Below are positions 4,724-25,090 of a stretch of DNA of 64,000 nucleotides, piece after piece; position 1 is the stretch's first letter; each line of letters opens with the position of its first letter. Location of the stretch: contig JAUYDL010000029.1 of assembly GCA_030691865.1 (NCBI GenBank), forward strand, positions 4,721 to 68,720. Reading direction: 5' to 3'. Position numbers and translations under genes: made by a program. The stretch is from Candidatus Omnitrophota bacterium (GTDB lineage: Bacteria; Omnitrophota; Gorgyraeia; Gygaellales; Profunditerraquicolaceae). The notes below the pieces were generated by a model that saw only the letters and a program-made list of their open reading frames with translations, was not told where the DNA came from and did not search any database.

Positions 4724-4780
4724 AAAGGGGACGGTTCTATTTTTTGAAACAAAAAATGAGCAAAAAATAGAACCGTCCCC
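4724..4780. repeat. REP/MITE-like palindromic element, copy 1. It probably acts as an intrinsic terminator after etfA.
   Basis: AAAGGGGACGGTTCTATTTTTT-loop-AAAAATAGAACCGTCCCC, with T/A runs on both sides. It abuts the etfA stop at 4789. Confidence 0.8.
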
Positions 4781-4788
4781 ATTATTTT

Positions 4789-5991
4789 TTATTTACGGAA
4801 AGCTACTTTGAAAGCTTGAGTTAAAGCAGGAATGACCTGAAAAAGATCACCGACAATCCCATAAGTGGCTACCTTAAAAATCGGGGCTTCGGGATCTTTA
4901 TTAATCGCCACAATAATCTTTGAGGATTGCATGCCTACAAGATGTTGAATCTGGCCGCTTATTCCGCAGGCAAAATAAATCTTAGGGCCCACCGTGCGTC
5001 CGGTCTGGCCGACCTGATGTGAATAAGGTATCCATCCGGCGTCAACTGCCGCGCGGCTGGAACCAATTGCTGCCCCTAAAACATGGGCCAAATCTTCTAA
5101 TAGTTTAAAATTTTCCGGCCCACCCATTCCGCGGCCTCCGGAAACAATAATATCTGCTTCGGATAAATTTACCGTAGACTCAATCTCTTCAATAATATCT
5201 AAGAGCTTAGTCCGCGAAAAATAAAGCGCTTGATCAAAACTTTCTTTAATAATTTTCCCCTTTCGTTTTTTATCCGCTGCCATCGGCGCAAATACTTTAT
5301 GCCTGACGGTAGCCATTTGCGGACGGTAAATCGGAGAAATAATTGTCGCCATGATATTGCCGCCGAAAGCCGGGCGTGTCTGCAATAAAATCTTTTTATC
5401 CGGGTCAATATCCAGGCCCGTACAGTCTGCGGTTAAGCCGGCTTTGATATTGATCGCCACGCGCGAAATCAGGGATCGGCCGATATTGGTGGCACCACAC
5501 AAGAAAATCTCAGGCTTATACTTCTTGACCAACTCCACTAAAATATTAGTATAGGGCTCATCCTGAAAATTGGCTAGCTCTGGAGCTTCCACCAGATAAA
5601 TATTATCCGCTCCGCAAAAAATCAGCTCATCTAACTGGTCTTCTAATTTATTGCCAATCAGAACTCCGCTGACGTTAGTATTTAATTTTTTCGCCAACTC
5701 CTGGGCCTTGCCTAATAATTCGTACGAAACCGATTGCACCCGGCTATTTTTCTGCTCGATAAAAACCCAAATTCCCCTATAATCTTCTACACAGGAATTT
5801 GGTGCTGCCGTCTCTAACTTCTCTAGCAGCACCGCGTTAAATATACAGGCATCTTGGCAAGCGCCGCAAAGAGTACATTTTTGTAAATCAATTACCGCCT
5901 TCTTGTCCATCATTCGGATGGCATCAAACGGGCAGGCCTTTACGCAAAGAGTGCAACCCGTACATTTCTCAATAATAATGGAAATCGGCAT
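4789..5991 (-). CDS. etfA: Electron transfer flavoprotein alpha subunit with an N-terminal 2x[4Fe-4S] ferredoxin domain (FixB-like).
   Basis: The N-terminus holds CTGCTLCVKACP and CTLCGACQDAC cysteine clusters. The ETF alpha FAD-binding C-terminus follows (...GISGQIQHLVGMQSSKIIVAINKDPEAPIF). Confidence 0.85.
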   Translation of the reverse strand: MPISIIIEKCTGCTLCVKACPFDAIRMMDKKAVIDLQKCTLCGACQDACIFNAVLLEKLETAAPNSCVEDYRGIWVFIEQKNSRVQSVSYELLGKAQELAKKLNTNVSGVLIGNKLEDQLDELIFCGADNIYLVEAPELANFQDEPYTNILVELVKKYKPEIFLCGATNIGRSLISRVAINIKAGLTADCTGLDIDPDKKILLQTRPAFGGNIMATIISPIYRPQMATVRHKVFAPMAADKKRKGKIIKESFDQALYFSRTKLLDIIEEIESTVNLSEADIIVSGGRGMGGPENFKLLEDLAHVLGAAIGSSRAAVDAGWIPYSHQVGQTGRTVGPKIYFACGISGQIQHLVGMQSSKIIVAINKDPEAPIFKVATYGIVGDLFQVIPALTQAFKVAFRK

Positions 5992-5993
5992 CT

Positions 5994-6776
5994 TTAATTA
6001 ACCTCGTCTTTGATCAACTCCACCAGCTGCTTAGTAATATCAGAAATCTCGCCCTTAAGTATCTGGCCACCGACTCTGGGCGTAGGAGTAAAAATTTTTA
6101 CAACCTGAGTAGGCGAACCACACAGCCCAATCTGTTGCGGGTCTAACCGTAACTCCTTTTGGGTAAGCGTAGTAATCTTAGCCGACTTTGCGCGCATTAA
6201 ACCTCTTAATGAAGGAATCCTGGGTTCATTAATCTCTTTGACTACGGTCAAAAGCGCAGGAAGCGAAGTCTGGATAATTTCAAAGCCTTCTTCCATCATC
6301 CTCTCTACACGCATTATCTTATCGGTTGCTTCTTCTATTTTCTTGACATAAGTTACCTGCGGGATATTCAAATGCGTGGATATTCCCGGACCAACCTGCG
6401 CTGTATCTCCGTCTGAAGCCTGCTTGCCGCAAATAATCAAATCAAACTCGCCCAGTTTTTTAATCGCGCCGGCCAAAGTATAGCTGGTTGCCCAGGTATC
6501 ACTTCCGGCAAAAGCACGGTCACAAACTAAATATCCTTCATCAGCCCCCAGGGAAATTGCTTCGCGCAAAGCGCTATCCGCTTGCGGCGGCCCCATTGTC
6601 AGAACAGAAACCTTACCCCCGAATCTTTCCTTAAGCCGGATAGCCTCTTCAATGGCATACATATCAAAAGGATTGATAATCGACTTAACCCCTTCGCGTA
6701 TCAGCGTATTGGTTTCAGGATTGATTCTTACTTCGGTAGTCTCAGGAACTTGTTTGATACAAACGATAATATGCAT
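5994..6776 (-). CDS. etfB: Electron transfer flavoprotein beta subunit.
   Basis: MHIIVCIKQVPETTEVRINPETNTLIREGVKSIINPFDMYAIEEAIRLKE is the classic EtfB N-terminus. Confidence 0.85.
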   Translation of the reverse strand: MHIIVCIKQVPETTEVRINPETNTLIREGVKSIINPFDMYAIEEAIRLKERFGGKVSVLTMGPPQADSALREAISLGADEGYLVCDRAFAGSDTWATSYTLAGAIKKLGEFDLIICGKQASDGDTAQVGPGISTHLNIPQVTYVKKIEEATDKIMRVERMMEEGFEIIQTSLPALLTVVKEINEPRIPSLRGLMRAKSAKITTLTQKELRLDPQQIGLCGSPTQVVKIFTPTPRVGGQILKGEISDITKQLVELIKDEVN

Positions 6777-6795
6777 AGATCCTTCGTCGTTCTTC

Positions 6796-6829
6796 GGGGA
6801 CGGTTCTCTTAAAAAAGAGAACCGTCCCC
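6796..6829. repeat. REP-like element, copy 2, a short-loop variant lying between bcd and etfB.
   Basis: GGGGACGGTTCTCTTAAAAAAGAGAACCGTCCCC, located inside the bcd-etfBA gene string. Confidence 0.75.
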
Positions 6830-8085: not shown

Positions 8086-8535
8086 TTACAAGGATTTTAA
8101 CAGCGCAATCTCTTGGCAGTTGGGGAATTTACAACAGTTAATGCACTCCGCCCAAATCTTATGCGGGAGAGCCTCATGCTTAATCTTTTTAAAACCTATT
8201 TTTTTAAAAAAATCCGGCTTATAAGTGAGCACAAAGATCTTTTTTGCCCCCATCAGGCGAGCTTCGGCAAGACAGGCCGAAACCAAATCATGCCCCAAAC
8301 CCTTTCCTTGCTTATTTTTAGCAACGGCTAAAGACTTAATCTCCGCTAAATCATCCCAGGAAATATGCAAGGCAGCGCAGCCGGATATCTTGCCCCTATC
8401 TTCATAAACCCAAAAATCGCGGATATTCTCATAAAGCTCATTGAGCGAACGCGGCAACATCACATCCTGCTTGGCAAAATAGCCAATCAGCTCTTGAATT
8501 TGTTTAATATCTTTTATTCTGGCTTTTCGGATCAT
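8086..8535 (-). CDS. GNAT-family N-acetyltransferase (small, ArgA-like).
   Basis: 149 aa with the GNAT core ...AVAKNKQGKGLGHDLV.... It overlaps the glgC start by 4 nt. Confidence 0.6.
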   Translation of the reverse strand: MIRKARIKDIKQIQELIGYFAKQDVMLPRSLNELYENIRDFWVYEDRGKISGCAALHISWDDLAEIKSLAVAKNKQGKGLGHDLVSACLAEARLMGAKKIFVLTYKPDFFKKIGFKKIKHEALPHKIWAECINCCKFPNCQEIALLKSL

Positions 8536-9755
8536 TTGATTTCCGTGCCTTTGGCCACCACAACAATTCCCGATTCACTGACAAAAAACTTCTTCTTATC
8601 TTCTTCCAAATTAAAACCAATAACCATTCCCTGCGGTATACTCACATCTTTATCAATAATCGCCCGTTTAATTTTAGCGTGCCTGCCTACATTAACACTC
8701 TCCATTAAAATTGAATCATAGACCTCAGAGAAACTATTGATCCGGACATTCGGTGACAGTATGGAACGCTGCACCCGGCCGCCGGAAACTACGCAACCCT
8801 CCGAAACTATGGAATCAAGCACCAACCCCACCCTTCCTTCTTCTTTCTCTCCGGAGTGCACTGTTTTTACCGGAGGATACTGTTCCTGGAAGGTTCGAAT
8901 TAACCACTCCTGATCATAAAGATTAAACGTAGGATTAACCTGGATTAACTCCATATTTGCCTCGTAATAAGCATCAATGGTCCCGATATCCCGCCAATAC
9001 TCCTGGCTCTTATCCTTATTACGAAAATTATAAGCCGAGATCTTCATCCCTTTTTTTAACATCTGCGGGATAATATCTTTGCCAAAATCATGCGAGGATT
9101 TGCTATTCTTAGCATCCTCCAATAATTCCTGCATTAGTACCTTCTGATTAAATACATAAATCCCCATTGAGCCAAAAATCTTATCCGGTTTTCCGGGAAT
9201 AGTTTTAGGATTTGCCGGCTTTTCCTGAAAACCGGTAACCCGGCCCTGAGCATCTGCATCCACCACGCCCAGATGTTTAGATTTAGACTTATCGATCTCA
9301 ACCACCCCCACCGTCAGATCCGCGTTTTGCTCACGGTGCACATCGATCATAGAATAATAATTCATTTTATAGATATGGTCGCCGGCTAAAATCAAAACCT
9401 CATCCGGACGGTCCATTTCTAAAGTATAAAGATTCTGATAAATCGCATCCGCAGTGCCCATGTACCAGGAATCTCCGATACGCTGCTGCGCGGGAAGCAG
9501 CTCGATAAACTGGCCTAGTTCCGAAGGAAGAAAATTCCAACCCAAACGGATATGTTTTTGCAAGGAAGCGGATTTATACTGGGTAAGGATATAAATCTTG
9601 CGCATCCCTGAATTAATACAGTTACTTAAAGTAAAATCAATAATCCGGTAAATGCCCCCAAAAGGAACTGCAGACTTAGTGCGGTCTTTGGTTAAAGGCA
9701 ACAGCCGCTCGCCTTTTCCACCGGCCATAATAAAGGTTAAAACTTTACGCATCAT
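8532..9755 (-). CDS. glgC: Glucose-1-phosphate adenylyltransferase.
   Basis: The N-terminus reads LTFIMAGGKGERLLPLTKDRTKSAVPFGGIYRIIDFTLSNCINSG. Confidence 0.85.
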   Translation of the reverse strand: MMRKVLTFIMAGGKGERLLPLTKDRTKSAVPFGGIYRIIDFTLSNCINSGMRKIYILTQYKSASLQKHIRLGWNFLPSELGQFIELLPAQQRIGDSWYMGTADAIYQNLYTLEMDRPDEVLILAGDHIYKMNYYSMIDVHREQNADLTVGVVEIDKSKSKHLGVVDADAQGRVTGFQEKPANPKTIPGKPDKIFGSMGIYVFNQKVLMQELLEDAKNSKSSHDFGKDIIPQMLKKGMKISAYNFRNKDKSQEYWRDIGTIDAYYEANMELIQVNPTFNLYDQEWLIRTFQEQYPPVKTVHSGEKEEGRVGLVLDSIVSEGCVVSGGRVQRSILSPNVRINSFSEVYDSILMESVNVGRHAKIKRAIIDKDVSIPQGMVIGFNLEEDKKKFFVSESGIVVVAKGTEIK

Positions 9756-10351
9756 TTAAGAAACGCTCCAATTATACCGTGCCTGATCATCATCACCGCG
9801 ATCGCCGCCAGCAATATATACATTATCTTAGAATATGCCCGTGTGCCGTTGGGGCCGATCACCTTCATTATCGTATCAGCCTTAACCAAAGTAATCCAGA
9901 CAAAAAACATATTTAATACTACTGCCACTAGGGTAGCCAGGGCGCCAAAACTGTTCATCATCATCAGCGTGGTAGTCAAAACCGCTGGCCCGGTAATTAA
10001 TGGTGTACCCAGGGGGAATACGCCCATGTCTTTATCATGAGAACTTGTTAATACGCTTTTCTGAGCACCCGGCAATAAAAGACGTACTGAAATAACAAAT
10101 AAAAGCGCGCCACCGGCAATCTGAAAATCAGGGATAGTTATACCTAAAAGCGAAAAAACCCACCGACCTATGAACATAAAAATAATCGCTACCGCCGTAG
10201 CAGTAGCAATCGCGTCTAAAATTATCTTATGCCTCTGAGTTTTTGAGGAACCCTCAACCAGAGATAGAAAAATAGGAATATTGGCAATCGCATCCACTGC
10301 CACAAACAGCGGAATAAAGCTAAGTATATAGGGTTTCAGCGCTTCCATCAT
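9752..10351 (-). CDS. MarC-family (UPF0056) integral membrane protein.
   Basis: 199 aa, about six transmembrane segments, MarC-like composition. Confidence 0.55.
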   Translation of the reverse strand: MMEALKPYILSFIPLFVAVDAIANIPIFLSLVEGSSKTQRHKIILDAIATATAVAIIFMFIGRWVFSLLGITIPDFQIAGGALLFVISVRLLLPGAQKSVLTSSHDKDMGVFPLGTPLITGPAVLTTTLMMMNSFGALATLVAVVLNMFFVWITLVKADTIMKVIGPNGTRAYSKIMYILLAAIAVMMIRHGIIGAFLK

Positions 10352-10409: not shown

Positions 10410-10457
10410 AAAGGGGACGGTTCTATTTTCCGTATTAAAATAGAACCGTCCCCTTTT
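10410..10457. repeat. REP-like element, copy 3.
   Basis: AAAGGGGACGGTTCTATTTTCCGTATTAAAATAGAACCGTCCCCTTTT, lying between the MFS stop and the marC start. Confidence 0.8.
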
Positions 10458-11615: not shown

Positions 11616-11675
11616 AAAGGGGACGGTTCTATTTTTCCTGCGTCCATTTCTAGAAAAATAGAACCGTCCCCTTTT
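11616..11675. repeat. REP-like element, copy 4. It probably terminates the gap-pgk-tpiA-secG operon.
   Basis: AAAGGGGACGGTTCTATTTTT-CCTGCGTCCATTTCTAG-AAAAATAGAACCGTCCCCTTTT, 9 nt downstream of the secG stop. Confidence 0.8.
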
Positions 11676-15081: not shown

Positions 15082-15196
15082 TTGACTCCTCCTCTTATTA
15101 TAGTTTTTTGCTTTCGTGCTACATCCTATCTACTAACTACTACCTACCTGCCTGACGGCAGCCAGGGCAGGCAGGCTAACTACCCTATATTTATGT

Positions 15197-16198
15197 TTAG
15201 TCTTTTACGGCTTTTAAATACTGCGCGGCTAATTCAGGCGAGGTTGGATCAAGATAAAAACCAGTTCCCCACTCAAAACCCGCCACCTCAGTTAAACGCG
15301 GCATAATTTCAAGATGCCAATGGTAATACTCTACGCCGGCATCGCCATTAATCGGCGCAGAATGAATTATATAATTATATGACAAATTTACAAATACTTT
15401 TTTTAATTTCGCTAAAGTGTACTTTAAAATCTTGGCCAGCGCCACAATCTCTTCAGCTGACATATGGTAGAAATAACCGCTATGCTGCTTAGGAAAAATC
15501 ATAATCTCAAATGGAAACCGGGAAACAAAGGGGCAAAATGAAATGAAATACTTATTTTCTAAAATCACCCTCTCCTTATCCTGGACCTCCTGACGAATAA
15601 TATCGCAGAATATACAACGCTCCCGGTAATTATAATAATTTTGCGCTCCATGAATCTCCTCCAGCACATTTTTGGGTACCATCGGCAAGGCGACTAATTG
15701 CGTATGCGGATGCTCCAGGGAAGCCCCGGCTGCTGCGCCATAATTACGAAAGACCATAATATATTTAAAACGGCTATCTCTTCTTAGATCCGCTGCGCGC
15801 ACACAACACATCTTCACGTAACTTTCGATTTCCTGCGGCAGGAGATCCGAGATATCTTTATTATGATACGGGCTCTCAATTAAAACTTCATGCGCACCGA
15901 TACCGTTGGACATATCATAAATACCTAATCCCCGACGGTCAAGCTCACCTTCAATCTGTAAAACGGGAAATTTATTGGCTACCACGCGTACCTGCCAACC
16001 GGGAGTATTCGCCCCTGTGCCCGGATCGCGAAAACAACTTATTTCAGGCGGGGTCATAAATTCATTGCCATAACAAAACGGGCATAAACCTCCGTCGGGA
16101 ATATACTGCTCATATTTAAAATCTCCCGGTTTCTTCGGATGAACCGTATCCACGATCACCCAGCGGCCAACCACCGGATCTCTTCTTAATTCACCCAT
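15197..16198 (-). CDS. galT: Galactose-1-phosphate uridylyltransferase (HIT-family class I GalT).
   Basis: CPFCYGNE Zn site and the HPHTQ (His-Pro-His) catalytic motif. Confidence 0.75.
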   Translation of the reverse strand: MGELRRDPVVGRWVIVDTVHPKKPGDFKYEQYIPDGGLCPFCYGNEFMTPPEISCFRDPGTGANTPGWQVRVVANKFPVLQIEGELDRRGLGIYDMSNGIGAHEVLIESPYHNKDISDLLPQEIESYVKMCCVRAADLRRDSRFKYIMVFRNYGAAAGASLEHPHTQLVALPMVPKNVLEEIHGAQNYYNYRERCIFCDIIRQEVQDKERVILENKYFISFCPFVSRFPFEIMIFPKQHSGYFYHMSAEEIVALAKILKYTLAKLKKVFVNLSYNYIIHSAPINGDAGVEYYHWHLEIMPRLTEVAGFEWGTGFYLDPTSPELAAQYLKAVKD

Positions 16199-17224
16199 CT
16201 ATATTTTAACCTCTCTTAAAAATTTAGCTGTATCTTCAGGCGGAAGCGGACAGATATAAAAACCCGTTCCCCATTCAAAACCCGCCACCTTAGTTAAACG
16301 CGGCATAATCTCGATATGCCAATGGTAATCCTGATCAATAGTCTTCCAGTAGCCCACCTTCTGCCGGCGAAAAGGCGCGGTATGAATGAGATAATTATAA
16401 TCCGGGTCATTCAATCCTATCTTTAACTTTAAAAGCACAGCTTTAAGCACGCGGGCTAGATTTCTCCTGGACTCCGCATCCATACAGGTATAATCACTGC
16501 AATGCTTCTTAGGTAAAATCCAGGTCTCAAAAGGAAACCGCGCGGCAAACGGGCTAACCGCAACAAAACCATCAAAATCTAAAATCACGCGTTCCTTTTG
16601 CGCCAATTCCTGTTTAATTAAATCGCAAAAAACGCAGCGCTCATGATAATCGTAATATTGACGCGCCCCAACCAGCTCTTCTTTTACGCGTTTAGGAGTA
16701 ACTGGTGTGGCAATCAATTGCGATCGCGCATGCCTGATCCCGCCGCCACCTGAACCTTTACCGTAATTTTTAAATACTAAAACATATTTAAACCGGCTGT
16801 CCCTCTCCAAATCCACTAATCTATCAGAATAGCAATTAAGCACTCTGGTAATCTGCTCTTCGCTTAAATCCGCCATATTGGCGATATGCTGATTCGTCTC
16901 AATCACAACCTCATGCGCACCTACGCCATTCATTACATCATAAATGCCGTTTCCACGACGATCTAAATCACCTTCAACCCTTAAAAATGGGGAAATGCTA
17001 GGAACTACGCGCAAATCCCAACCCGGGCCATTACGCGTAGAATTACGCGGTCGGATAGCATAAATTTCAGGGGGAGTATTTCCTTCCCTACCTTCACAAA
17101 ATGGGCAGGCCAACTGATCTTCCTGATCTTTGAGTTGGCCGACAAATTGATCAGGGCGCCGTGCGCGTTCGGTGGAGATAATTACCCACCTACCTATAAT
17201 CGGATCTTTCCTTAATTCTGGCAT
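16199..17224 (-). CDS. GalT paralog whose His-x-His nucleophile motif is replaced by His-Ala-Arg.
   Basis: CPFCEGRE Zn site is retained. The motif IRHARSQLIATP aligns to EHPHTQLVALP of the neighbouring copy. Confidence 0.65.
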   Translation of the reverse strand: MPELRKDPIIGRWVIISTERARRPDQFVGQLKDQEDQLACPFCEGREGNTPPEIYAIRPRNSTRNGPGWDLRVVPSISPFLRVEGDLDRRGNGIYDVMNGVGAHEVVIETNQHIANMADLSEEQITRVLNCYSDRLVDLERDSRFKYVLVFKNYGKGSGGGGIRHARSQLIATPVTPKRVKEELVGARQYYDYHERCVFCDLIKQELAQKERVILDFDGFVAVSPFAARFPFETWILPKKHCSDYTCMDAESRRNLARVLKAVLLKLKIGLNDPDYNYLIHTAPFRRQKVGYWKTIDQDYHWHIEIMPRLTKVAGFEWGTGFYICPLPPEDTAKFLREVKI

Positions 17225-17225
17225 A

Positions 17226-17262
17226 GAAAGTAATTATAACAGAACTCCTAAAAGTTGCAACA
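17226..17262 (-). promoter_or_regulatory. Sigma70-like promoter TTGCAA-N16-TATAAT, ending 8 nt before the ATG of the GalT paralog. It may give a leaderless or near-leaderless transcript.
   Basis: The minus strand reads TTGCAACTTTTAGGAGTTCTGTTATAATTACTTTCTATG. No Shine-Dalgarno is visible. Confidence 0.3.
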
Positions 17263-17358: not shown

Positions 17359-18393
17359 CTATTTATTTTTCCTTAATAGGCGTTTAGCGGCTTTCCGCTC
17401 AATCATTTTTACCGAGCGATCAAAATCGCTGTCTTTTGCATCGCAGGCTTTGATCCTTTTGAGATTAAATTTATCATATTGTACTTCCGCATGCCCAAGC
17501 GCAAGCTCATGAGATATCTTGCCTGCATGAGCGAGAATTTCCCGCTCATTAAGCGACAAAAATCCGTCAAGCTTTTTAATCCAGTCCTTCATATACATGG
17601 GGGTACGGCGCATCGCCTGGCCTTCGGCGAAAATCAGATATTGCTCTACGAGATTGTTGAGCGCCAAAAGTTCTTGTCCATAAAGATAATTCTTCGCGAT
17701 GGCGACATCGTGTTTGCGAACTTTAGCGCCTCGCCAGCTGGTAAGCCCCATGTTCGTCTTTGAGCTGTCAGCGCGTTCGCGTATAATTTCCGCGGCTGTT
17801 TTGCCACTGATTGCCCAATGCATTTTATTCTGCACCGTTTTAAAGAAGTCAATGCTGATTTCCAATGCAGGATTGTAATCTACGCTAGTAGCATAAATGT
17901 CCGTTATCTTCTGATAGAACCGGCGCTCGGAGGTACGAATATCCTGAATACGCCGGACAACCTCATCAAAATAATCAAAGGGTTGATCGGGATTTTTAAG
18001 CCGTTCGTCATCAAGCACAAAACCTTTTACAATATATTCCCGCAAATGCTGGGTTGCCCATTGACGAAACCGCGTGGCGATATGTGATTTAACACGATAT
18101 CCAACAGAAATAATCACATCAAGATTATAATATTCAATTTTTCTTTTGACCGGCCGCGTACCTTCTATTTGAACTGTCAAGAATTCCTTGACAGTTGCCT
18201 TAGGTATTAATTCTCCTTCTTCGTAAATATTTTTAACATGGACGCTGATGTTCTGCTTAGTAGTCTGAAATAGTTCCGCCATCAACTGCTGAGTCAGCCA
18301 GACCGTCTCATTTTGAAAACGAACATCAATTTTAATTTTTCCGTCTTCAGTCTGATAAATTATCAACTCGGACTTATTTTCTTTATTTTCCAC
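17359..18393 (-). CDS. RhuM-family (virulence-protein RhuM-like) protein.
   Basis: The N-terminus reads IIYQTEDGKIKIDVRFQNETVWLTQQLMAELFQTTKQNISVHVKNIYEEGEL, characteristic of the RhuM family. Confidence 0.6.
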   Translation of the reverse strand: MENKENKSELIIYQTEDGKIKIDVRFQNETVWLTQQLMAELFQTTKQNISVHVKNIYEEGELIPKATVKEFLTVQIEGTRPVKRKIEYYNLDVIISVGYRVKSHIATRFRQWATQHLREYIVKGFVLDDERLKNPDQPFDYFDEVVRRIQDIRTSERRFYQKITDIYATSVDYNPALEISIDFFKTVQNKMHWAISGKTAAEIIRERADSSKTNMGLTSWRGAKVRKHDVAIAKNYLYGQELLALNNLVEQYLIFAEGQAMRRTPMYMKDWIKKLDGFLSLNEREILAHAGKISHELALGHAEVQYDKFNLKRIKACDAKDSDFDRSVKMIERKAAKRLLRKNK

Positions 18394-19459: not shown

Positions 19460-21304
19460 TTAGATAGGGTCTACATCCACCGTCACTATTATACCTGAAA
19501 AATGCCCTTCTTTTAAGTGTAATTTTAAAAAATGGCTGGCTTTCTCTACGTTAGGCGCGCGCATTAATATCTGATAATAAAAATTCTCCCGCAATTTAGC
19601 CGGTTGCCCGGGATTAAGGGAGAGCATTTTTATACTGCTTGTCTTAATCTTATTTAATTTTTCAAATAAATCACAAGCAGACTGCTTAACCTTTTCCAAA
19701 CTTTCCCCTCTTAATCTAACCAGGATCATATGTTTAAAAGGTGCAAAGTTTAGCTGTTTGCGTTGTTTTAATTCCTCTTTATAAAACAACCTTGAATCAT
19801 TCTTAATCAAAGCCTGAAAGCAATGATGGTTAACATTAGCGCTTTGAATAATTATCGACTTAGATGTTAAACTAACTAACCCCATCAGCAGATTAAAAGT
19901 TTTCTCAGCAGCGCGAAAATCCACCCGGTTAAGCGAATTATCTATCGCCAAAACCCCTATTAAATCAAAATTTATTTCCTGGTGTTTAATTACCGAGCTG
20001 GTAGCAACAAAAATATCCACATTCATACGCGCCTGTGGGAAAATTCTCGCCAGTTCGCTTTCTACCTTTTCTGTGCCGATACCTGAATATTTAATATAAC
20101 CGGCATTACAATGTGGACAGATTTTAGGCACCGGCATTTTAAAATTGCAATGATGACATTTTAATTTATCATCATCAAAATGAAATACCAGATTAATATT
20201 GCAGCGCGGACATTTCAAAGCCACCTGGCAATTATGACAAGCAACCGTGGTAGCAAAACCTTTGCGATTAATCACCAATAAGACCTTACCTTTTTCAGCC
20301 AGGGCCATCTGTATCGCATCCAGCAAAAACTTTGAAAACATGGATTTGTTTTTTCTTTCCGCATAAGCCAGCCGGCGCACATCGATAACCTTAACAAGCG
20401 GGTAAGCCAGTTTTGAAGGAATAACTTCAAGATCCAGTTTACCTTTTTGCAACAGATAAAAACTTTCCAAAGATAAACAATGACTGCCCAGAATAACTCC
20501 TGAACCCTGAATCTGTGCGCGCATCAATCCAACTTCCCGGGCATGATAATGCGGAACCTGCTCCTGCTTATAAACCTGATCCTCTTCTTGGTCGATAATC
20601 ATCAACCCCAGATTATTCACGCAAGAGAAAATACTTGAGCGCGTACCGGCCACCACGCAGTAATCTGCTTGTCTGATTTTTTCCCAAATCTCCAGTTCAT
20701 TAGGCTGTTTGCGGAAGGAGATAAAAACTTCTTTCCCCAAACTCTTCTCCAATTTCTCTTTTACCCTTTCCACTGCTGCGATATTACTGCACAGAATAAT
20801 TACCGACTTTTTAGCCGCCAGAACTTTCTTAATCTCCCTTAGGTAAACCGGTATTCGGTCAAACCCCTGAACAAAAAGGGGACGTTTCCCTTTCTCAAGA
20901 GAAAGGGGACGGTTCTCTTTTTCTGAAACCTTATTAAGAGAACCGTCCCCCTGATTTAAGTCTTTCCCCTTCCTCAACTCATCCGGTAACGCCGCTTCAA
21001 TTGCCTCTCCCCAGGAACAACAATAATATTCCGCCAGCTCCTTAGTCAACTGAAGCATCGAATCATCCAAGATCGGGAATAAATCAATAACCGAGATAAT
21101 CTCTTTTAATTTTTTGATTTTAGTTTTATTATTTAATTCTACTACGTAGGCAACTTCTTTTTTGTTGCGGAAATTTACCCAAACTCTTGCTCCAATGTTA
21201 ACTTTGGCTTCCAGGCCCACCGGAACAAGGTAATCAAACGGGCCATCAATCGGCAGGCCCAACACCACATTAGCGTATAACACTAGCCAACTCCTTACAA
21301 GCAA
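19460..21304 (-). CDS. priA: Primosomal protein N' (PriA) homolog with degenerate helicase motifs and an in-frame REP-derived insertion.
   Basis: The N-terminal domain (GLPIDGPFDYLVP) and the Cys4 zinc fingers (CHNCQVALKCPRC... CHHCNFKMPVPKICPHC) match PriA. Where GVTGSGKTEVYL is expected it reads GFDRIPVYL. DEEH is replaced by DQEE, SAT by SHC, and QVAGRAGR by GLVSLTSK. Confidence 0.8.
   Translation of the reverse strand: MLVRSWLVLYANVVLGLPIDGPFDYLVPVGLEAKVNIGARVWVNFRNKKEVAYVVELNNKTKIKKLKEIISVIDLFPILDDSMLQLTKELAEYYCCSWGEAIEAALPDELRKGKDLNQGDGSLNKVSEKENRPLSLEKGKRPLFVQGFDRIPVYLREIKKVLAAKKSVIILCSNIAAVERVKEKLEKSLGKEVFISFRKQPNELEIWEKIRQADYCVVAGTRSSIFSCVNNLGLMIIDQEEDQVYKQEQVPHYHAREVGLMRAQIQGSGVILGSHCLSLESFYLLQKGKLDLEVIPSKLAYPLVKVIDVRRLAYAERKNKSMFSKFLLDAIQMALAEKGKVLLVINRKGFATTVACHNCQVALKCPRCNINLVFHFDDDKLKCHHCNFKMPVPKICPHCNAGYIKYSGIGTEKVESELARIFPQARMNVDIFVATSSVIKHQEINFDLIGVLAIDNSLNRVDFRAAEKTFNLLMGLVSLTSKSIIIQSANVNHHCFQALIKNDSRLFYKEELKQRKQLNFAPFKHMILVRLRGESLEKVKQSACDLFEKLNKIKTSSIKMLSLNPGQPAKLRENFYYQILMRAPNVEKASHFLKLHLKEGHFSGIIVTVDVDPI
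20875..20951. repeat. REP-like element, copy 5, inserted in-frame inside priA.
   Basis: GGGGACGTTTCCCTTTCTCAAGAGAAAGGGGACGGTTCTCTTTTTCTGAAACCTTATTAAGAGAACCGTCCCCC. It encodes ...GDGSLNKVSEKENRPLSLEKGKRPL..., which is absent from canonical PriA. Confidence 0.7.
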
Positions 21305-22380: not shown

Positions 22381-22435
22381 AAAGGGGACGGTTCTATTTT
22401 TACCGAGTCGAGTTCTAGAAAAATAGAACCGTCCC
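22381..22435. repeat. REP-like element, copy 6.
   Basis: AAAGGGGACGGTTCTATTTTTACCGAGTCGAGTTCTAGAAAAATAGAACCGTCCCC. Confidence 0.8.
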
Positions 22436-22438
22436 CAT

Positions 22439-23841: not shown

Positions 23842-23895
23842 GGGGACGGTTCTATTTTTCTAGAACTCATTTGCGGAAAAAATAGAACCGTCCCC
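23842..23895. repeat. REP-like element, copy 7, with its loop in inverted orientation.
   Basis: GGGGACGGTTCTATTTTTCTAGAACTCATTTGCGGAAAAAATAGAACCGTCCCC. The loop is the reverse complement of the loop in copies 4, 6 and 8. Confidence 0.8.
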
Positions 23896-25033: not shown

Positions 25034-25090
25034 AAAAGGGGACGGTTCTATTTTTCCCGAGTCCAGTTCTAGAAAAATAGAACCGTCCCC
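25034..25090. repeat. REP-like element, copy 8.
   Basis: AAAAGGGGACGGTTCTATTTTTCCCGAGTCCAGTTCTAGAAAAATAGAACCGTCCCC. Confidence 0.8.

Follow-up and report, generated by a model that had tools for sequence, protein, structure and literature searches.

Two adjacent genes in a 64-kb window of DNA from a bacterium of the phylum Omnitrophota (the window being the whole stretch that was analysed) encode paralogous proteins of the GalT branch of the HIT superfamily, here called copy A and copy B, and the residues that make up an active site in this family are divided between them. We consider it probable, at roughly 70%, that A and B form an obligate heterodimer with one composite active site. Copy A, in which an arginine occupies the place of the nucleophilic histidine, would then most likely be a non-catalytic but strongly conserved partner and not a broken gene. 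This reading is favoured because the loss of active-site residues is reciprocal, the two genes are translationally coupled and syntenic, a natural A-B fusion exists and the arginine-bearing copy is the more conserved one.

Active-site residues of two adjacent GalT-like genes

The two genes and the codons discussed in this section are the following (positions are those of the window).

16199 to 17224, minus strand: copy A ('up'), open reading frame of 341 amino acids, GalT/ADP-glucose-phosphorylase-like, with Arg167 in the place of the nucleophilic His; proposed non-catalytic subunit.
15197 to 16198, minus strand: copy B ('dn'), open reading frame of 333 amino acids; proposed catalytic subunit.
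16718 to 16732, minus strand: codons of H165-A-R167-S-Q169 in copy A; zinc-ligand His and Gln kept, nucleophile His changed to Arg (CGA).
15698 to 15712, minus strand: codons of H163-P-H165-T-Q167 in copy B; intact HxHxQ nucleophile motif.
17156 to 17167, minus strand: codons of R20-A-R22-R23 in copy A; N-terminal basic arm, equivalent to R28/K30/R31 of E. coli GalT.

Both copies matched the Pfam families GalP_UDP_transf and GalP_UDP_tr_C, scored above the cut-off of TIGR00209 (galT) and were 49% identical to each other over the full length (E 5e-119). An earlier note on this DNA had described two adjacent GalT-like genes that both carry a CPFCxGxE zinc site. Both are present, as CPFCEGRE (residues 40-47) in copy A and CPFCYGNE in copy B, and both lie on the minus strand, a detail that the note had left out. 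The motifs it had given, HARSQ in the upstream copy and HPHTQ in the downstream one, could be read directly from the sequence, where the codons CAT GCG CGA of copy A occupy 16732 to 16724. It had further placed the Arg at the nucleophile position and had proposed an alignment with E. coli GalT (His164/His166) as a check. With MAFFT, HARSQ fell on HPHGQ (His164/His166) of the E. coli enzyme, and with HMMER it fell on HSHSQ of the plant protein At5g18200, so that H165, R167 and Q169 of copy A are aligned with H164, H166 and Q168 in E. coli and with H184, H186 and Q188 in At5g18200. From both alignments we concluded that Arg167 stands at the exact nucleophile position, the equivalent of His166. 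The nucleophilic second His of HxHxQ is thus absent from copy A (Arg167) and present in copy B (His165).

For comparison we used 80 genome loci of Omnitrophota, 68 of which contain complete tandem pairs; 63 of these pairs are of the Arg/Lys type. The structural zinc site, composed of a CxxC and two His (C40, C43, H113 and H165 in copy A; C39, C42, H112 and H163 in copy B), was invariant in 63 of 63 pairs. All eight metal-site ligands are kept in copy A, and both metal sites are fully kept in both copies. The nucleophile position in the first copy of the 68 tandem pairs was occupied by Arg in 62, by Lys in 1, by Ile in 1 and by His in 4; in the second copy it was His in all 68. H-x-[R/K]-S-Q was read in 119 of the 120 top database hits to copy A, which are 73-93% identical to it. 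By these sequences the His-to-Arg change in copy A is far beyond chance. Copy A belongs to the GalT branch by descent but would not be a catalytic member.

In human GALT the glucose-1-phosphate site consists of the C-terminal loop of one chain and of Gln188 and Asn173 of the other, and Arg48, the equivalent of Arg28 in E. coli, approaches Gln188 from the opposite chain (PMC5081055). At5g18200 and the class I GalTs form homodimers whose active sites lie between the two subunits (bioRxiv 10.64898/2026.09.13.751320). We assigned residues to the cis or the trans side of the site on the basis of the literature on human and E. coli GalT, and scored the positions in the 63 Arg/Lys-type pairs, aligned (MAFFT) with E. 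coli GalT and At5g18200. At the cis positions N77, D78, F79, C160, S161 and H166 (E. coli numbering) copy B had N, K/R, F/Y, A, S/T and H, each in 63 of 63 pairs. At the same positions copy A had S (60/63), mostly I, A/S/K/T, G/A/S, mostly G, and R/K (63/63). The trans arm showed the opposite picture. At R28, K30 and R31 copy A had R (63/63), R/K (61/63) and R/K (63/63), and copy B was variable, with H/N/R/K, S/K/N/D and K/A/S/L. In the window itself the cis half of copy B is complete (N75, K76, F77, S160, H163, H165 and Q167) and its own arm is degenerate (H20, K22 and K23). Taken over 14 non-metal cis positions, 6 were changed in A and none in B, and over the 3 trans-arm positions none was changed in A and all 3 in B. 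A hand-calculated Fisher exact test gave p ~0.012 for this reciprocal loss, a value that is indicative only since the pairs are related.

Both the cis and the trans set are kept in the single-copy relatives, namely the proteins of two further loci (L075 and L079), At5g18200 and E. coli GalT, and the same was seen in 82 of the roughly 130 full-length proteins that represent the wider family in its diversity. The residue set of a homodimer, with a cis pocket and a trans arm in each chain, is complete in neither of the two copies; only an A-B dimer would hold one complete site, made of the pocket and His165 of B and the arm of A. The loss in the supposedly active copy B had not been seen earlier, and it turns a one-residue curiosity into an argument for a heterodimer. 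The four copies of A that retain the His already carried N77S and F79S/A, and their B partners had already lost R28/R31. We concluded that the dismantling of the site preceded the His-to-Arg change.

The arginine-bearing copy was also the more conserved of the two. The mean pairwise identity was 69.4% for copy A vs 64.5% for copy B, with 77 vs 59 invariant columns, and more than 190 sequences, the most distant of them about 55% identical, had an unbroken copy A reading frame. As A is more strongly conserved than B, it is not a decaying gene. Besides the kept residues, copy A has conserved novelties of its own: a G291-Y292-W293 insertion, R/K164, R167, R179, K181, G219, D244, D299 and an extra residue in the Gly-rich loop. 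An AlphaFold2 model of copy A, based on an alignment of 137 sequences that included distant representatives, had a predicted local distance difference test score (pLDDT) of 94.7. In Foldseek its template modelling (TM) score was 0.82-0.94 to At5g18200 (1ZWJ/2H39), at 36% identity, and 0.82-0.84 to E. coli and human GalT. This model replaced an earlier one, built from 25 close homologs, that was unusable (pLDDT 49).

Gene order, fusion and proposed expression of the pair

The 80 loci share the gene order fmt-A-B-gap, and pgk and tpiA often come next. The two genes were almost always in tandem, copy A preceded copy B in all loci that were long enough, and gap followed copy B wherever a tandem locus extended far enough downstream. 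In the window the TAG stop codon of copy A (16199-16201) abuts the ATG of copy B (16198), and the following motif overlaps the end of copy A.

16210 to 16216, minus strand: Shine-Dalgarno-like AGAGAGG for copy B, within the last codons of copy A.

The distance from the stop of A to the start of B was between -14 and +4 nt in 57 of the 68 pairs, and most of these carried the AGAGAGG Shine-Dalgarno (SD) sequence. Such tight coupling is the usual signature of subunits that are made in equal amounts.

One locus (L082, positions 5001-6800; GCA_003558915.1, PWOP01000182.1) encodes a natural A-B fusion of 599 amino acids, P0121, in the place that the pair takes elsewhere, upstream of gap-pgk-tpiA-secG. 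Its A module has kept only the N-terminal arm (ERAKRP) and the C-terminal half; the first CxxC and the HxHxQ loop are gone. Its B module starts at CPFC, and so is without an arm of its own, and contains HPHTQ. By its sequence the fusion appears to keep exactly those parts that a heterodimer would need. The A-like module of P0121 lacks the Gly-Tyr-Trp insertion and its C-terminal half is nearer to copy B, so that it may have originated from an independent duplication and degeneration. The genes of two more divergent A-like proteins, P0127 and P0141, follow priA-(def)-fmt and have a complete B-like gene as their immediate downstream neighbour; the N-terminal domains of these proteins have degenerated so far that Pfam barely recognises them. 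For the degenerate representatives P0140, P0205 and P0128 the contigs were too short to give gene context.

Upstream of copy A we found the promoter-like box that the earlier note had reported as TTGCAA-N16-TATAAT at 8 nt from the ATG; its presence was confirmed, on the minus strand.

17233 to 17260, minus strand: promoter-like box TTGCAA-N16-(TGT)TATAAT, ending 8 nt before the ATG of copy A.

Read in the direction of transcription, the stretch 17260 to 17222 consists of TTGCAA (17260-17255), 16 nt, TATAAT (17238-17233) preceded by TGT (an extended -10), the 8 nt TACTTTCT and the ATG. No SD sequence was found between the box and the ATG of copy A, nor anywhere within 17 nt. In DNA as rich in AT as this, promoter matches at 10 of 12 positions turn up often (33 in 10 kb vs 22.6 expected), and the match alone therefore proves little. 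We then scored the box in relatives, at 77 orthologous loci, as TTGnnn-N15-18-TAnn[AT]T ending 5-10 nt before the start codon. It was present in front of copy A at 31 of the 77 loci. For the control genes the counts were 0/72 (copy B), 0/65 (gap), 0/53 (fmt), 0/32 (pgk), 0/28 (tpiA) and 2/45 (priA). What is non-random about the box is thus where it lies. An SD-like motif was found at 0 of the 31 loci with the adjacent box vs 14 of the 46 without it. The box was kept where the stop codon of fmt abuts the -35 element, and also where other genes have been inserted upstream, as rhuM in this window. In other lineages the TTGCAA-N16-TATAAT box was located 12-87 nt upstream of copy A, sometimes together with an SD sequence.

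We consider it fairly probable that A-B is expressed from a leaderless message, whose first nucleotide would be the A of the ATG or lie no more than about 2 nt from it. The earlier suggestion of a leaderless mRNA has thus gained strong comparative support (31/77 loci vs 0-2 per control gene), while the transcription start itself we infer from the sequence only. A tentative second explanation, which we hold to be distinctly less probable, is that the box only resembles a promoter by chance, as AT-rich DNA may, or acts as an internal or secondary one, and that copy A is translated by a non-SD mechanism from a longer read-through transcript. Since all 54 genes of the window lie on one strand, transcripts from rhuM/fmt could plausibly run on into copy A; an obvious SD sequence is missing from many genes of the window, and 10/12 matches are common, as described above. 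Against this stands a box that at 31 of 77 loci ends 5-10 nt before the ATG and that is found in front of essentially no control gene, that excludes SD-like motifs (0/31 vs 14/46), and that persists both next to the fmt stop and behind inserted genes. Within the window a TATAAT-adjacent ATG without an SD sequence was found for 2 of the 54 genes. The other one is a gene for a MarC-family membrane protein (9752-10351, minus strand), with TATAAT 8 nt before the ATG, a second candidate for leaderless expression.

Several features of the surroundings were noted in addition. A RhuM-family gene (17359-18393, minus strand; Pfam E 2.8e-111) lies between fmt and copy A. It looks like a local insertion, as in most of the 80 loci copy A follows fmt directly; a few other loci carry different genes inserted at this junction. 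After the stop codon of copy B, in the interval 15082-15196 (minus strand) before gap, there is an inverted repeat, CCTGCCTG...CAGGCAGG, and between this repeat and gap a TATAAT and a strong AGGAGG SD sequence. The gap gene may therefore own a separate promoter, and the A-B pair may then be a separate two-gene unit. The 54 predicted genes of the window (at least 90 amino acids, after an overlap filter) are all on the minus strand, an unusually complete bias. Eight palindromic repeats AATAGAACCGTCCCC...GGGGACGGTTCTATT were found in the window, compared with 0.05 expected by chance, at 4727-4780, 6796-6829, 10413-10453, 11619-11671, 20905-20950, 22384-22436, 23842-23895 and 25038-25090. They are mostly intergenic and resemble shared terminator hairpins or elements of the repetitive extragenic palindromic (REP) type; the one at 20905-20950 lies inside the priA reading frame.

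The proposed heterodimer weighed against its alternatives

We propose that the pair encodes the two subunits of a nucleoside-diphosphate-hexose phosphorylase or a hexose-1-phosphate nucleotidyltransferase. In this family each active site of the dimer is formed from two chains, with the nucleotide pocket and HxHxQ on the cis side and the N-terminal basic arm and the C-terminal sugar loop on the trans side. Copy B would supply the cis half and copy A the trans arm (R20, R22 and R23). The single working site would use His165 of B, forming a covalent nucleotidyl-enzyme in a ping-pong mechanism. The reciprocal site, made of the cis side of A and the trans side of B, would be without a nucleoside pocket, without a nucleophile (Arg167) and without the arginines of the partner, and would not be expected to carry out such chemistry. 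It keeps the hexose-phosphate contacts and has gained basic residues, and may still bind a sugar phosphate or another anion. A bicistronic leaderless message, beginning at the ATG of A (within about 2 nt), together with translation of B by coupling, would yield the two chains at roughly 1:1. The physical association of the two proteins, their activity and their substrate are in this proposal deduced from the sequence patterns described above.

Several points weigh against a heterodimer with one dead site. The conserved novelties of copy A are not explained by it. N153, G159 and Q169 of copy A, at positions that contact the hexose phosphate in GalT, are invariant, and the C-terminal sugar loop of B (GFEWGTGFY) is as invariant as that of A, though the loop of B would serve the degenerate site. 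The term 'dead site' may therefore be too strong, and from the invariant cis residues of A and the loop of B we concluded that the degenerate site is not simply decaying. The alignment of the C-terminal loop to E. coli GalT is uncertain, and the trans role of E. coli K30 and R31 was assigned because they share an arm with R28. Because the 63 pairs share ancestry, their counts do not represent independent events, and the fusion P0121 is known from a single metagenome-assembled genome.

One extension of the heterodimer would be that the Arg-bearing site of A has been repurposed as an allosteric site, which senses sugar phosphate, phosphate or pyrophosphate (PPi) and tunes the single catalytic site. 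The site has lost its nucleoside pocket but keeps all hexose-phosphate contacts (N153, G159 and Q169 in cis, the GFEWGTGFY loop of the partner in trans) and has gained the positive charges R/K164, R167, R179 and K181 and the Gly-Tyr-Trp insertion. We regard this extension as rather unlikely. If true, it would couple ADP-glucose turnover, for which glgC is present in the window, to the downstream genes gap-pgk-tpiA, and the pair would be the first described member of the HIT/GalT branch that is both regulated and asymmetric.

The earlier note had left copy A as a pseudo-enzyme, a regulator or an enzyme with different chemistry. Our data narrow this to a conserved non-catalytic subunit, with different chemistry disfavoured and some room left for a regulatory role. 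Copy A could be a free-standing, non-enzymatic ligand-binding or regulatory protein, as a homodimer or with other partners, that senses a sugar phosphate next to an active homodimer of B. Such a protein would account for the retention of N153, G159, Q169 and the C-terminal loop in A, for the gain of R/K164, R167, R179, K181 and the Gly-Tyr-Trp insertion, and for the high conservation. We nevertheless consider it improbable, as a homodimer of B would miss the trans arginines that single-copy members have kept, and the invariant arm of A would be left without a reason; the tight coupling, and a fusion that keeps the arm of A and drops that of B, fit better with a complex.

Still less probable, in our view, is that copy A is active with an altered chemistry or substrate, for example by direct transfer or hydrolysis with Arg167 stabilising a phosphate, and that the pair represents two activities. 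The replacing residue is Arg in 62 of 68 pairs and not a random residue, both metal sites, Q169 and N153 are retained, and a weak neighbour-joining tree scattered the His-retaining copies among basal Arg lineages, so that Arg may have been fixed more than once. However, one transition is enough to turn His into Arg (CAY to CGY), and most of the Arg codons are of the CGN type, so that repeated fixation needs no special selection. We disfavour a different chemistry because the pocket residues N77, D78, F79 and S161 were lost with the His, as were the phosphate-binding arginines of the partner, and because no compensating His that is universally conserved was found in the alignment of the copy A family. 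Enrichment in copy A was seen for a single His, H194, present in 89% of A copies and 3% of B copies. This enrichment would speak for an active copy A, but on its position and distribution we rejected H194 as a stand-in for the nucleophile across the family, since it is not universal and adjoins the second CxxC, outside the HxHxQ loop. To our knowledge no enzyme of the HIT superfamily or its GalT branch is active without the nucleophilic His.

That copy A is a decaying duplicate without function, a pseudogene in progress, might be suggested by the loss of the catalytic His and the nucleotide-binding residues, but this is refuted by its intact frame in the many sequences compared, its conservation above that of B, its invariant columns and metal ligands and its confidently predicted fold.

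Substrate, significance and comparison with known systems

The closest solved structure for both copies was At5g18200 (1z84), with E values of 6.5e-68 for A and 8.3e-69 for B; the matches to E. coli and human GalT were far weaker (E 1e-19 to 1e-22). At5g18200, the nearest characterised relative, is described as an ADP-glucose phosphorylase, and not as a Leloir GalT, in PMC6329318 (citing McCoy et al. 2006). Neither galK nor galE was found near the pair. For these two reasons, the missing neighbours and the much weaker match to E. coli-type GalT than to the plant ADP-glucose phosphorylase, we rejected a GalT of the Leloir pathway as the default reading. A gene for glucose-1-phosphate adenylyltransferase, glgC, is located at 8532-9755 (minus strand; NCBIfam 577 bits vs a cut-off of 470), about 5.4 kb downstream of the pair. 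An ADP-glucose phosphorylase activity of the pair, in which phosphate would split ADP-glucose into glucose-1-phosphate and ADP, is suggested by the nearest homology and by this glgC. The most economical reading would be an interconversion of nucleotide sugar and hexose-1-phosphate that feeds glycolysis. Put together, glgC and a putative ADP-glucose phosphorylase would amount to ATP + inorganic phosphate (Pi) -> ADP + PPi, a speculative PPi-generating cycle that would need regulation.

In the databases these proteins are named GalT or DUF4931. In the papers searched we found nothing relevant on a HIT/GalT heterodimer or pseudoenzyme pair, on DUF4931/DUF4921, on leaderless transcripts in Omnitrophota or on GalT of Omnitrophica. 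The division of the site would correct the annotation of hundreds of Omnitrophota genes as 'galactose-1-phosphate uridylyltransferase' or 'DUF4931', and a phylum-wide split of one site between paralogs would show cleanly how reciprocal loss can turn a homodimer into an obligate heterodimer. A, B and A+B would make a simple test system for the catalytic contribution of each chain, which is relevant to dominant-negative alleles in human galactosemia. The pair lies between fmt and core glycolytic genes, in a phylum that is poorly understood and for the most part uncultured, and its substrate would inform on how stored or scavenged sugar is fed into glycolysis. With its conserved promoter next to the ATG, copy A offers a specific prediction of leaderless translation in Omnitrophota, of a kind that is rare.

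Among the distant representatives P0126-P0268 a sizeable minority were without the cis residues, the trans arm, or both, and some had Tyr, Ser, Val, Ile or Cys at the nucleophile position. These sequences suggest that non-catalytic GalT-like paralogs may be more widespread than the Omnitrophota clade. One representative, P0151, is an 871-amino-acid Euglenid protein with two HxHxQ motifs.

Leaderless mRNAs are common in Actinobacteria and Deinococcus and rare in E. coli. Copy A shares with the known ones a -10 box 6-9 nt from the ATG, the absence of an SD sequence and the ATG start, and differs from them in that the evidence for it is comparative only.

GalT-type enzymes are symmetric homodimers with two equal ping-pong sites. 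The class I GalTs, among them E. coli GalT and human GALT, have the same fold as the Omnitrophota proteins, a composite site made of two chains and the second His of HxHxQ as the nucleophile. They differ from the pair in being homodimers with two equal sites, and the neighbours of the Omnitrophota pair are gap, pgk and tpiA. In mixed dimers of wild-type and Q188R human GALT both sites depend on both chains (PMC5081055). At5g18200 (PDB 1Z84, 1ZWJ and 2H39) has the two CxxC/His metal sites of both copies and the HxHxQ of copy B. It is a homodimer in which each chain contributes cis and trans residues, whereas in the Omnitrophota these residues are divided between paralogs, with Arg at the position of His186.

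Pairs of a catalytic and a non-catalytic paralog are known from the small and large subunits of plant ADP-glucose pyrophosphorylase, from the trypanosome S-adenosylmethionine decarboxylase (AdoMetDC) and its prozyme, from deoxyhypusine synthase and from ADAT2/ADAT3; heterodimeric ATP-binding cassette (ABC) exporters with one degenerate nucleotide site are a further example. In these cases, as proposed here, a homo-oligomer with sites at its interfaces was duplicated, and one paralog lost catalytic residues yet stayed an essential partner. The known pairs have other folds and another chemistry, and in the Omnitrophota pair the loss is reciprocal and can be read from the two sequences.

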